A stretch of DNA of 64,000 nt from Candidatus Hermodarchaeota archaeon. Lineage in GTDB: Archaea > Asgardarchaeota > Lokiarchaeia > Sigyniarchaeales > SOKP01. Under the pieces are notes generated by a model. It saw only the letters and a program-made list of their open reading frames with translations, made no database searches and had not been told where the DNA came from. Of this stretch, positions 38,572 to 41,279 are shown in pieces. How positions within the stretch are numbered: the stretch's first letter is position 1; the number at the start of each line of letters is the position of its first letter. The stretch is from positions 77,569-141,568 of the forward strand of contig JBHLLG010000002.1 in NCBI GenBank assembly GCA_048885925.1. The letters run 5' to 3'. The translations under genes and the position numbers were made by a program.

Positions 38572-39060
38572 TTAGAGAGATCTCTGCATCCAAATTATAT
38601 CAAAAGTCCGTCCAAACTTTTTAGCAATATTTTTAAATCTTCCACATTCAATAAAACCATGTTTTTTATGGAAATTTAGGCTTTGCTCATTTAAAGAGGA
38701 TAAATGAATAAAAAGTAAACGGACTCCATTTTCATTGGCATATTCAATTAATTTATTTAATAACCTTGTACCAAAACCTTTATTAGTATATTCTGGTTTA
38801 ATAAAATAGCTTATTTGTCCTGTATGCATGAAATTATCATAAGGTAAATAATTTTTTATAAATGCAAAACCACTTATTTTCTTTTCAATTTCTAAAACGA
38901 CAAATGATAAACATTCTTGACGTAATTGACTGATAAAATTAATTTTAACTTCTTTTTCAGAGTAAGCAGCAAAACCATTTAAAATATAATTATTATAAAT
39001 TGAAAGAACATCGTTTAAGTCTGAATTTTTAACTTTCCTAATTCGAAATTCAAAAGCCAT
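38572..39060 (-). CDS. GNAT N-acetyltransferase (YncA/Pat-like)
   Basis: IYNNYI, KGFGTRLL, NEQSLNFHKKHGF..CGRF...KFG..DIIWMQ. Confidence 0.9.
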   Translation of the reverse strand: MAFEFRIRKVKNSDLNDVLSIYNNYILNGFAAYSEKEVKINFISQLRQECLSFVVLEIEKKISGFAFIKNYLPYDNFMHTGQISYFIKPEYTNKGFGTRLLNKLIEYANENGVRLLFIHLSSLNEQSLNFHKKHGFIECGRFKNIAKKFGRTFDIIWMQRSL

Positions 39061-39135
39061 AATAAAATATTAAATAAATTAATTTTTTGAAGTTTTACAT
39101 TTTAAATAAAATAGAATTAAAAAAATGAAATATAT

Positions 39136-39208
39136 AATCCTAAGACCTTTGCATGGTTGTCCTTAAGCATCTCGTTTTTTCATACTTAATTCATTCTTAA
39201 TTAGGATT
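39136..39208 (-). promoter_or_regulatory. Eukaryote-like SECIS element in the 3' UTR of the Prx-like selenoprotein
   Basis: mRNA after the stop: GA AUGAA UUAAGUAU GAAAAAACGAG AUGCUUAA GGAC. This gives an AUGAN/NGAN core, an 8-bp helix and an A-rich apical loop (39159-39194). Outer helix AAUCCUAA (39201-39208) pairs with UUAGGAUU (39136-39143). Confidence 0.8.
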
Positions 39209-39724
39209 TTTGATATATTTATCAATTAGGAGTAACATCGCACTTACTGAAGGTCTGTCTGTTTTATCTCTTCCTATGTATTTCCATACAATTGTCCCAT
39301 TTTTATCTATTAAAAATTTGCTCGGTACAGCTTGTTTTACTTTAAGTTTTCCCCAACCTTCTGCAAACCAATACACATTATAATCCTTAGCTATTTTAGC
39401 TCCACGGTCTGAAATCATATCTACTGGAAATTTATTTTCTTCTTTAAACTTTCTTAGTAATCCAATTGTGTCGCTTGCAATTGAAATAACTTTAACATTT
39501 CTTTTTTCAAACTCATGAAATTTTTTCGTTAAATTCTCTAGTTCTTCTTTTCAATAACTTCACCAAGTACCACGAAAAAAAACAATCAATACTGCATTAT
39601 GATTTTGAATGAGATTAGATAAATTAACTGGATTACTAAATATATCTACTGTATTTATCAAAGGTGCTTGAGTATGCAATGATAATCCCCTGGGTCTCAT
39701 TTCTTCTTCTTTCTTTAAAGCCAT
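39197..39724 (-). CDS. Peroxiredoxin-like (AhpC/TSA, thioredoxin fold) selenoprotein with a UxxU motif, 175 aa
   Basis: ATG 39724 with SD GAGGT. The frame reads ...VLIVFFRGTW-TGA-SY-TGA-KEELENL..VKVISIASD..FPVDMISD..PSKFLIDKNGTIVWKYIG..DRPS. The TGA codons (39560-39562, 39551-39553) occupy both Cys positions of the F.RG.WCP.C motif. The track shows only the last 73 aa. Confidence 0.92.
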
Positions 39725-39976
39725 TTGGTTATTACCTCAAAACTAATTACACTACAATTTTTCTTACAAATATTGATAAAAATTATAATTTTAAAGATAT
39801 GTTTTTCGAAAGATGATAAGAGTAATTTAAAATGTTAGGTTTTTCTAATAAAATCAAGAAATAAAATAGAAATAGCAGTTCTTTCATTAGATGATTATCA
39901 AGATTCTAAAAAATACTGCCAAAATTCAGAAATTGTAAAAATTGTAAATAAAAAGTGACATAAAAATGTAATAATA

Positions 39977-40501
39977 TTAAGTTCCGAATTTTTCAAAAAG
40001 AACTTCTGTCAAAACTTCAAATGCTTTTTCTACGTTTTCTCCAGTTTTGGAAGATAGTTCTACAAAAGAAGCTAAATTATACTTTCTTGCAGCTAATATC
40101 CCATCATCTCGAGGAACAGCTCGAAACTCATATAAATCCAATTTAGAGCCAATCAACATTATAGGGATGTCACCGGAATGTTCTCTAATTACTTGAGTCC
40201 AATCGGGTAAGTGATCTAATGAGGTTTGATTAGTGATATCATATAAGAAGAATGCTCCATTTGCCCCTTTACTATATTGTGAAAGTAGAAATCGAAACCT
40301 TTCTTCTCCACCAAAATCCCAAATCTGTAATTTTACTTTTTTATCTTTAAAATAAGTGGTCTTAGAATAAAAATCAACACCTATAGTCAATTTGAGGTCT
40401 TCCATGAAGTATCCTGAAATATATCTCATTGTAAGGGATGTTTTACCCACTGATGCATCACCTAACATCATGATTTTAAAAGTATAATCGTAATCTGTCA
40501 T
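39977..40501 (-). CDS. Rab-like small GTPase
   Basis: YDYTFKIMMLGDASVGKT, TIGVDF, KLQIWDFGGEERFR, SKLD, SSKTGENVE. Confidence 0.93.
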   Translation of the reverse strand: MTDYDYTFKIMMLGDASVGKTSLTMRYISGYFMEDLKLTIGVDFYSKTTYFKDKKVKLQIWDFGGEERFRFLLSQYSKGANGAFFLYDITNQTSLDHLPDWTQVIREHSGDIPIMLIGSKLDLYEFRAVPRDDGILAARKYNLASFVELSSKTGENVEKAFEVLTEVLFEKFGT

Positions 40502-40637
40502 TACTTTCAACAGTAAAGGTATTTTAAGGACTTTCTTCGAGTTTTAAAAATAAATTTTAAAATTATTCTAGTAATATACCCAATATTAATTAATTTTTAT
40601 CTATTTTAAAATTATTATTTTCCAAAAAACACAAAAA

Positions 40638-41279
40638 TCATATCAACAAAAGGAGAATATTAAAAAAAGAATGAGCGATGGAACATGGGATTAGTGATTC
40701 GCCAAAATACGTAAAAATAAGAGAAAGAACTAATCCAAATACAAAATAATATCCAAAAAAAGTTATTATAGTTGTTAAAGGGACTAGAAACGGAGGAACA
40801 TGATAAAGGGTAAAAAGTATAGAGGATATAATAATTGAATAAGCTATTTTCAATTTGGTTTTAATTTTTTTTATAAGAAATCCTCTGAAAAAAGCTTCTT
40901 CACAAGGTCCGACAACGATCAATTGTAAAATTACTAAAGTAATTAGTTGGATGAAATTAGGGCGAATTGGAGTTGTGTTGATGACTCCTTCTTGGCCTTG
41001 TTCAACAAATTCATACCCAAATATATTGTTTATCACAACATCTCTAAAAAAAATGATAATATAATTACTTAAAAAGAAAAATAAAATTCCAAAGCTCAAT
41101 CCAGATATTATTTTAATAAATAAGTCTTCATTTTTCTCAAAACCCATATCCTTTAAAGTCATTGTGAAAGATTTCTTCTCCAATTTGCTAACTATTAACG
41201 CGGGGGTAATAATAAATAAAATTTCTAATAATGTTAATCCAATTAATATCCAAGGATTTTCTCCTAATTGTACAACCAT
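40638..41279 (-). CDS. CPBP (CAAX/Abi) intramembrane glutamic protease
   Basis: EEAFFRG, FTLYH and HSFFN motifs all intact. Confidence 0.9.
   Translation of the reverse strand: MVVQLGENPWILIGLTLLEILFIITPALIVSKLEKKSFTMTLKDMGFEKNEDLFIKIISGLSFGILFFFLSNYIIIFFRDVVINNIFGYEFVEQGQEGVINTTPIRPNFIQLITLVILQLIVVGPCEEAFFRGFLIKKIKTKLKIAYSIIISSILFTLYHVPPFLVPLTTIITFFGYYFVFGLVLSLIFTYFGESLIPCSIAHSFFNILLLLI

Follow-up and report, generated by a model that had tools for sequence, protein, structure and literature searches.

Lokiarchaeota are known to encode selenoproteins of five families, among them PrxL (Mariotti et al. 2016, PMC4989117). According to the main text of that paper, both redox-box cysteines are replaced by selenocysteine (Sec, U) in PrxL.1 and one of them in PrxL.2; PrxL proteins lack other cysteines, and a diselenide is proposed as likely, in parallel with SelL. 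The same text describes a selenocysteine insertion sequence (SECIS) element, lokiSECIS, which consists of AUGA, a 9-bp stem, an 11-nt loop starting with As and ending with AG, and then GA. The main text of Huang et al. 2024 (PMC11227280) reports Prx-like selenoproteins in 43.2% of the Sec-using Asgard archaea, and a table in a 2026 review has the entry 'Prx-like thiol:disulfide oxidoreductase, UxxC, UxxU, 1~2 Sec' (PMC13188914). Elsewhere, UxxU was noted in 2008 in the bacterial Prx-like 2 family (PMC2398784). SelL of aquatic animals and marine bacteria has a UxxU box for which the text of PMC2397514 reports a diselenide bond, and one SECIS serves its two UGA codons, two codons apart (main texts of PMC4989117 and PMC2397514). 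Here we analysed a stretch of 64,000 nucleotides from a Candidatus Hermodarchaeota archaeon (assembly GCA_048885925.1, contig JBHLLG010000002.1, positions 77,569 to 141,568), which we call the window and whose own numbering is used below. On its reverse strand, at 39197..39724, lies a gene that we read, with a probability of roughly 0.88, as the two-Sec (UxxU) form of the Asgard PrxL selenoprotein family (PrxL.1 type), encoding a cytoplasmic protein of 175 residues with a thioredoxin fold.

A first reading of the window, made by a model from the letters and open reading frames alone (the sequence-only reading), had called this gene 'hidden'. That word does not fit, as the protein type was published for Lokiarchaeota in 2016 (main text of PMC4989117); with a two-Sec PrxL described there, the gene adds another example to a known type and is no discovery. 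What we add is the sharing of one genomic slot by UxxU and UxxC forms, a three-helix SECIS architecture and variation of the tRNA-Sec introns. The SECIS architecture and the intron variation are the parts worth specialist attention.

The reading frame and its relatives

The frame runs on the reverse strand from an ATG at 39724-39722 to a TAA at 39199-39197 and has 175 sense codons; its start column is shared by the orthologs. A Shine-Dalgarno-like GAGGT, putative and found by eye, lies 9 nt before the ATG (39734..39738, reverse strand). The only in-frame stops are two TGA codons, codon 55 (39562-39560) and codon 58 (39553-39551), so that the redox box of the read-through protein is VFFRGTW-U-SY-U-KEEL, with the two UGAs 9 nt apart. 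The G+C content of the window is 28.4%, and at such a composition 175 random codons would lack both TAA and TAG with a probability of about 6e-6. In Pfam, the read-through protein matches AhpC-TSA at 4e-25 (88.6 bits, cut-off 26; residues 19-147) and Redoxin at 4e-20 (72.4 bits, cut-off 26.6), and both matches span both TGAs. Outside the redox box the protein has no cysteine. Under translation table 11, the frame is broken into a 54-aa piece (39560..39724) and an ATG-started 73-aa piece (39197..39418), the ATG of which is codon 103. Public databases reflect this: among the 120 homologs listed, 85 are without the redox box, most of them 100-119 aa long and, where named, called redoxin or peroxiredoxin, and 35 span the box, gene-called with TGA as W (WxxW or WxxC).

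We searched 60 relatives in six frames and obtained matches in 51, from which 34 close genes were extracted; two spurious pattern matches were left out. Two-TGA orthologs exist in six genomes of the same genus and are 64-79% identical, and most other matches carry one TGA. The consensus box across the 34 close genes is FFRG.WU..[U/C]K, with 7 UxxU and 27 UxxC genes (paralogs or orthologs). The first box position (39560..39562, reverse strand) is TGA in 34/34 of them; the second (39551..39553, reverse strand) is TGA in 7 and TGY, for Cys, in 27. Both TGAs are identical in all seven UxxU orthologs. Across the 51 homologs, both box positions, D85, D106 and P134 are invariant. Named public metagenome-assembled genomes (MAGs) gave 13 archaeal loci, 8 with UxxU and 5 with UxxC; by the depositor's label, 12 belong to Promethearchaeota or Promethearchaeia and one to Odinarchaeota.

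The median ratio of nonsynonymous to synonymous substitution rates (dN/dS, Nei-Gojobori) among the seven UxxU orthologs is 0.09 after the second TGA (21/21 pairs) and 0.31 before the first (16/21 pairs, the other five being saturated), values that are rough because the synonymous rate (dS) is saturated. The codons downstream of the second TGA are thus under strong purifying selection. Metagenome contigs from three other samples, all of one study, agree with the gene at every position (0 differences). A second study provides a 344-nt contig over 39261-39604 with seven differences; the five that were itemised all fall outside the two TGAs. The comparison strongly supports that both UGA codons are translated, with conservation running on beyond them.

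The sequence-only reading fares well on these points. We recovered its unannotated 175-codon gene with ATG 39724 and the GAGGT motif, and the translation agrees that the TGAs at codons 55 and 58 are the sole internal stops. It saw the thioredoxin fold continue on either side of them, and the two Pfam matches span both. It had also foreseen truncation to a 73-aa fragment by standard pipelines, which is what table 11 yields and what the 85 box-less homologs reflect, and it had named Cys or Sec at both columns of homologs as a check; the 34 close genes carry Sec at the first and Sec or Cys at the second. Relaxed selection on the N-terminal half, which it regarded as fatal to its proposal, is not what we see, with purifying selection on both sides of the TGAs.

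The SECIS element and the selenocysteine machinery

The strongest single piece of evidence for the two-Sec reading is a SECIS, which is absent from the sequence-only reading. A Loki-type element occupies 39194-39160 of the reverse strand and begins about 370 nt after the first UGA. Its AUGA (39191..39194) lies 2 nt after the stop codon and is invariant in the 32 aligned SECIS. The upper stem P2 (39162..39190) has nine positions, 39190-39182 with 39170-39162, and is closed by an 11-nt A-rich apical loop, GAAAAAACGAG (39181-39171); the GA of the core (39160..39161) is GA in 31/32 and AA in 1/32. The element is present behind 32 of the 34 close homologs, and the two misses both belong to a different family of the order. 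Measured from the stop, the element is offset by +2 in 25 genes, by +5 in one and by +20 in one. In five genes (loci L018, L023, L025, L026 and L027) the offset is -4, the TGA stop of the gene being the TGA of the AUGA core.

Compensatory changes occur in 8/9 pairs of P2 across the 32 aligned elements, and 87.8% of the cells pair, against 30-54% with slid partners; the covariation score was reached by 0/500 shuffles. When we ran a strict SECIS pattern over both strands of the whole 3.9-Mb genome, we found five matches, each right after a UGA-containing frame. The genes before them are the PrxL gene, three VhuD/FrhD-like genes with two Sec each and one HdrA-like gene. Rfam matched no family in the window at gathering thresholds; the main text of PMC4989117 notes that Loki genes yield no significant match with standard SECIS tools. 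Separately, short contigs of three samples carry a variant at window position 39187 (T>C on the forward strand), in the 5' arm of the SECIS upper stem, where it turns an A-U pair into G-U. These contigs may stem from a related strain or a paralogous SECIS, as they show five differences over 37 nt.

The alignments point to a larger structure around this core. The whole region (39136..39208, reverse strand), delineated by alignment, RNAalifold and covariation, comprises a lower helix P1, a junction that holds the stop codon, the AUGA/GA core, P2 with its A-rich loop and a hairpin P3. The 5' strand of P1, AAUCCUAA (39201..39208), consists of codons 173-174 and two bases of codon 175, and its 3' strand, UUAGGAUU (39136..39143), was located by RNAalifold and by counting pairs. 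In the extended alignment, P1 joins AAUCC[C/U]AA, from the last sense codons, to a UU[G/A]GGAUU that follows about 60 nt later. P3 is a mini-hairpin of ACC, a 7-nt loop and GGU (39145..39157, reverse strand), flanked by the GA and the 3' strand of P1. Both P1 and P3 were predicted unaided by RNAalifold on 31 homologs, with 92.2% and 92.7% of the cells pairing, respectively. One P1 pair changes from C-G to U-A in two genes, the window gene included, and is U-G in three. The four other SECIS of this genome (on contigs C5, C11, C23 and C31) have the same layout, with unrelated helix sequences and equivalent 3' hairpins. The VhuD-type SECIS of relatives show the layout in 15/17 cases; the shuffled-flank control is weak, with 95/340 shuffles also passing the loose criteria. 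Run on 52 other loci, a covariance model made only from the 31 close PrxL elements recovered 30 full-length matches (E up to 1), which lie behind other PrxL paralogs and VhuD-type genes. In its alignment 21/21 pairs have compensatory changes and 90.3% of the cells pair, against 27-47% when slid; the alignment was fitted to the model, and these figures are therefore biased towards the structure.

In the text of Wang et al. 2014 (PMC4005666), a k-turn is called a k-junction when the strand that faces its bulged loop takes up a third helix. Judged from RNA alignments, the secondary-structure topology of our SECIS fits this definition, with the third helix in the non-bulged strand. Unlike a k-turn with a 3-nt loop, the Loki-type element has a longer 5' junction strand (about 6 nt plus AU). 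It resembles the eukaryotic SECIS in its AUGA...GA core, A-rich apical loop and lower helix, and differs from it in its shorter upper stem (9 bp). We tentatively suggest, at somewhat less than even odds, that the Loki SECIS is a conserved three-way, k-junction-like element, with P1 made of the last sense codons, the stop codon in the junction and a third hairpin. If this is true, a ribosome that terminates has to unfold the same element by which the UGAs further upstream were recoded, and this unfolding would account for the reading of a 3'-terminal UGA as a stop. The three-helix SECIS would then be a structural intermediate between the archaeal and eukaryotic SECIS. Five SECIS of one genome with a common three-helix architecture bear on the relationship between the Asgard and eukaryotic elements.

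As for earlier descriptions, the words 'junction', 'lower stem' and 'internal loop' are absent from the main text of PMC4989117, where 'hairpin' stands in the reference list only. The main text of PMC11227280 mentions a lower stem and an internal loop in generic terms and no 3' hairpin, and 'k-junction' appears there in a reference only. A literature search for SECIS with 'three-way junction' or 'k-junction' returned no title or abstract on such an element, figures and supplements being outside its scope and possibly showing one; PMC2746813 is the other paper whose searchable text contains SECIS with one of these junction terms. The three-helix SECIS context, the shared syntenic slot and the repeated U/C switching discussed below were not found in the searchable main text of PMC4989117 and PMC11227280.

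The genome, which is 95% complete, carries most of the archaeal Sec machinery, a conclusion that we regard as strongly supported. A genome search found SepSecS (478 bits, cut-off 225), SelD (176.7 bits) with one in-frame TGA (HGUSCK), and a SelB/EFSec-like factor with 235 bits, about 100 bits above any EF-Tu/EF1A model. A tRNA-Sec with anticodon UCA, a 9-bp acceptor stem and an encoded GCCA end lies immediately upstream of SepSecS, on the forward strand of contig C8 (83691-83815; locus L001:1462-1586), as judged from Rfam and ARAGORN. The EFSec-like gene and the tRNA-Sec gene are about 6 kb apart on opposite strands, with the EFSec-like gene upstream, an arrangement as published for Loki. The sequence-only reading had expected this machinery together with PSTK; SepSecS, SelD, the EFSec-like factor and tRNA-Sec were found as expected, and PSTK turned up only in part, as described in the next section.

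The tRNA-Sec introns vary within the genus. The D-arm of our tRNA-Sec holds an insertion of about 32 nt. Among 30 same-genus tRNA-Sec loci, 21 are without an insertion, six (this genome included) have a 30-33-nt insertion in the D-arm, two combine a D-arm insertion with a 30-nt insertion in the T-loop, and one is truncated where its contig ends. The main text of PMC4989117 gives a T-loop intron only for the published Loki tRNA-Sec, and the word 'intron' is absent from the main text of PMC11227280.

Protein type and rival explanations

The best solved relative by sequence is the BCP-type thiol peroxidase of Aeropyrum pernix, 2cx3 (2.5e-16), and the ResA-type CxxC oxidoreductase 4nmu matches at 1e-8. 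In the phmmer alignment with 2cx3, U58 corresponds to the peroxidatic Cys, U55 to the Thr/Ser of peroxiredoxins (Prx), R51 to the Prx Pro and Q129 to the catalytic Arg. In the alignment with 4nmu, the CxxC falls on U55/U58, so that U55 takes the place of its first, nucleophilic Cys and U58 that of its second. P134 aligns with the Pro of the ResA segment 'P-x-x-F-L-I-D' and is presumably the thioredoxin cis-Pro; this residue is invariant in 51/51 homologs. When the peroxiredoxin active site (Pro-x3-Thr/Ser-x2-Cys plus Arg) was sought, only the Cys equivalent, U58, was matched. The conserved Arg has a catalytic role in peroxiredoxins. Among NCBIfam models the best is the SelL-related redox protein NF040769 (62.9 bits, cut-off 120). 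The ResA (43.9 vs 170 bits) and DsbE (30.3 vs 123 bits) models, which stand for the TlpA/ResA type, and all peroxiredoxin models, such as PrxU (32 vs 270 bits), stay far under their cut-offs. Neither a signal peptide nor a hydrophobic membrane anchor was seen by eye in the read-through protein. Because of the CxxC and cis-Pro alignment, the absent Prx residues, the lack of a signal peptide or anchor and the absence of any other Cys, we read the protein as a cytoplasmic CxxC-type oxidoreductase. The box, called an AhpC/TSA-like redox motif by the sequence-only reading, is thus better described as a thioredoxin-type CxxC, the Prx Pro and Arg not being conserved.

That both UGAs are recoded through one 3' SECIS of the Loki/eukaryote-like kind is strongly supported. 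Sec55 would stand in place of the exposed nucleophilic Cys of the CxxC box and be the attacking residue, with Sec58 as the counterpart of the resolving Cys. A protein built in this way would be expected to alternate between a diselenol state and one with a diselenide bond inside the molecule. Its role may be that of a low-potential thiol/selenol-disulfide (or sulfenate/peroxide) reductase, not of a classical peroxiredoxin.

Could the protein be a true peroxiredoxin after all, a peroxidase with a peroxidatic Sec58 and with Sec55 as its helper? The closest solved relative, 2cx3, has its peroxidatic Cys at U58, and AhpC-TSA is the top Pfam family. Against this stand the replacement of the Prx Pro, Thr/Ser and Arg by R51, U55 and Q129, the retention of the thioredoxin-type cis-Pro P134 and the low scores with the NCBIfam peroxiredoxin models; the main text of PMC4989117 also gives Pro-x3-Thr/Ser-x2-Cys as the Prx motif and describes PrxL as lacking typical Prx features. 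We consider a peroxidase of this kind unlikely, if still worth keeping in mind. Inefficient recoding is far less probable: the gene would then yield mainly the 54-residue N-terminal peptide or an internally started C-terminal fragment, with full-length protein rare or absent. Two consecutive recodings would indeed multiply any inefficiency, and the ATG at codon 103 opens a 73-aa frame. Yet neither fragment holds a complete thioredoxin fold, the strongest constraint (dN/dS 0.09) extends from just behind the second UGA to the stop, with residues 59-102, upstream of the internal ATG, included, and UxxU is the sole copy in the slot in three genomes, this one included.

It is highly improbable that the UGAs stand for Trp, Cys or Gly, through a genome-wide change of code or SECIS-independent read-through. 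Public gene callers did translate 35 homologs with W; this W arises because code 4/25 was chosen on short contigs and does not reflect biology. TGA is an ordinary stop in this genome: of the 1556 open frames with 300 codons or more, 222 end on TGA, and 177 of these 222 meet another in-frame stop within the next 20 codons. Five close homologs end on TGA as their own stop, and the in-frame TGAs sit at Cys-equivalent redox positions with a SECIS after them, in a genome with Sec machinery. Hardly credible at all is the view that the TGAs are sequencing or assembly errors or that the gene is a decaying pseudogene. Two close stops in a metagenome-assembled genome, and the lack of a full-length annotation under table 11, might suggest it. 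The same two TGAs, however, occur in six other genomes and in 8 of the 13 named loci from MAGs of Promethearchaeota or related archaea, the contigs of three other samples agree with 0 differences, the contig from the other study retains both TGAs, selection is purifying on both sides, and a conserved SECIS lies downstream. Ortholog, contig, selection and SECIS data already refute this view, and with it the sequencing error that the sequence-only reading had allowed for.

Several observations weigh against the two-Sec reading and lower our confidence in it. The dS values of the seven UxxU orthologs are near saturation. The 3' untranslated region folded alone is not significant (z = -1.53), and because of this the case for the SECIS rests on comparison. 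The SelB/EFSec-like score is 7 bits under a curated, bacterial-trained cut-off. The tRNA-Sec scores 34.1 bits against an Rfam gathering score of 47, which is explained by the roughly 32 nt that interrupt the D-arm; ARAGORN found no tRNA in the unspliced locus and gave no SeC line in a whole-genome run, and it calls tRNA-SeC(tca) only after in silico removal of about 31-37 nt from the D-arm. A putative PSTK is seen only as a 51-aa N-terminal fragment with a P-loop before a 100-N scaffold gap (contig C154, locus L036:1277-1534, reverse strand). The diselenide and the enzymatic role are our suggestions from the alignments. With these points counted, a two-Sec Prx-like selenoprotein of a Lokiarchaeota/Promethearchaeota archaeon, in line with the sequence-only reading, is the interpretation with which the orthologs, the SECIS covariation and the independent contigs agree.

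Locus history and comparison with known systems

The order Rce1-like CAAX protease, Ras-family small GTPase, PrxL and GNAT acetyltransferase is conserved across the genus (window 38572-41279; loci L005-L032). NurA is a further neighbour in the window, and none of the neighbouring genes there suggests a redox partner. The UxxU form occupies the same slot between the Ras-family GTPase and GNAT genes as the UxxC form in relatives. In 32 same-genus loci, the slot holds UxxC alone in 25 genomes, a UxxC-UxxU tandem in four (G007, G008, G020 and G034) and UxxU alone in three (this genome, G009 and G035). In a quick maximum-likelihood tree of 51 PrxL sequences, with Sec coded as Cys, the seven slot UxxU genes form one clade among the UxxC genes of the genus (SH-aLRT 95), and UxxU is also found in six more distant paralogs. 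Parsimony on this tree, the deeper part of which is unsure and has several long branches, gives five state changes, at least three of them forced by well-supported branches. It is possible, though we would not yet bet on it, that UxxU arose from UxxC, or reverted to it, several times.

A T7 run 3' of the SECIS (39119..39125, reverse strand), noticed by eye, is a candidate archaeal oligo-T terminator, and a T-rich tract lies at the equivalent place in aligned homologs. A scan of the window for sigma-70 promoters and intrinsic terminators, a method ill-suited to archaea, produced no signal stronger than in shuffled sequence, and no tRNA was called there by ARAGORN. Elsewhere in the genome, the reverse strand of contig C90 (5822-6214; locus L065) encodes another Prx-like selenoprotein, a distant one at about 25% identity that has only one Sec (LFRNINUPFCRWH); the PrxL-derived SECIS model reported no match in this locus (E up to 1).

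Proteins with a UxxU box are rare, and we know of none from archaea that has been characterised biochemically. What an anaerobe gains from a diselenide redox centre is a question for which the PrxL family would be well suited. In this genome and in many public MAGs of Promethearchaeota, the gene is present only as a truncated 'redoxin' fragment (about 100-119 aa) or as a WxxW mistranslation, and a SECIS-aware annotation pass would restore the full gene.

Among known systems, Loki PrxL.1 is the closest. The window protein shares with it the Prx-like thioredoxin fold, Sec at both box positions and the lack of any other Cys; the gene has a lokiSECIS close to its stop and a UxxC sister form (PrxL.2 type) in the lineage, and the arrangement of the EFSec and tRNA-Sec genes is that of Loki. 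No defining feature differs, and the window gene is probably a one-to-one ortholog of the published PrxL.1. SelL is likewise a thioredoxin/Prx-like protein with a UxxU box and one SECIS for two UGAs; unlike SelL, the window gene is archaeal and its SECIS is different, and the protein is not a SelL member, given its score of 62.9 against the cut-off of 120 with NF040769. With BCP/PrxQ (2cx3) and TlpA/ResA (4nmu) the window protein has in common the fold and length, U58 at the Prx Cys, U55/U58 at the ResA CxxC and the conserved cis-Pro. It differs from BCP/PrxQ in lacking the Prx Pro, Thr/Ser and Arg, and from ResA/TlpA in having, by eye, neither a signal peptide nor a membrane anchor.

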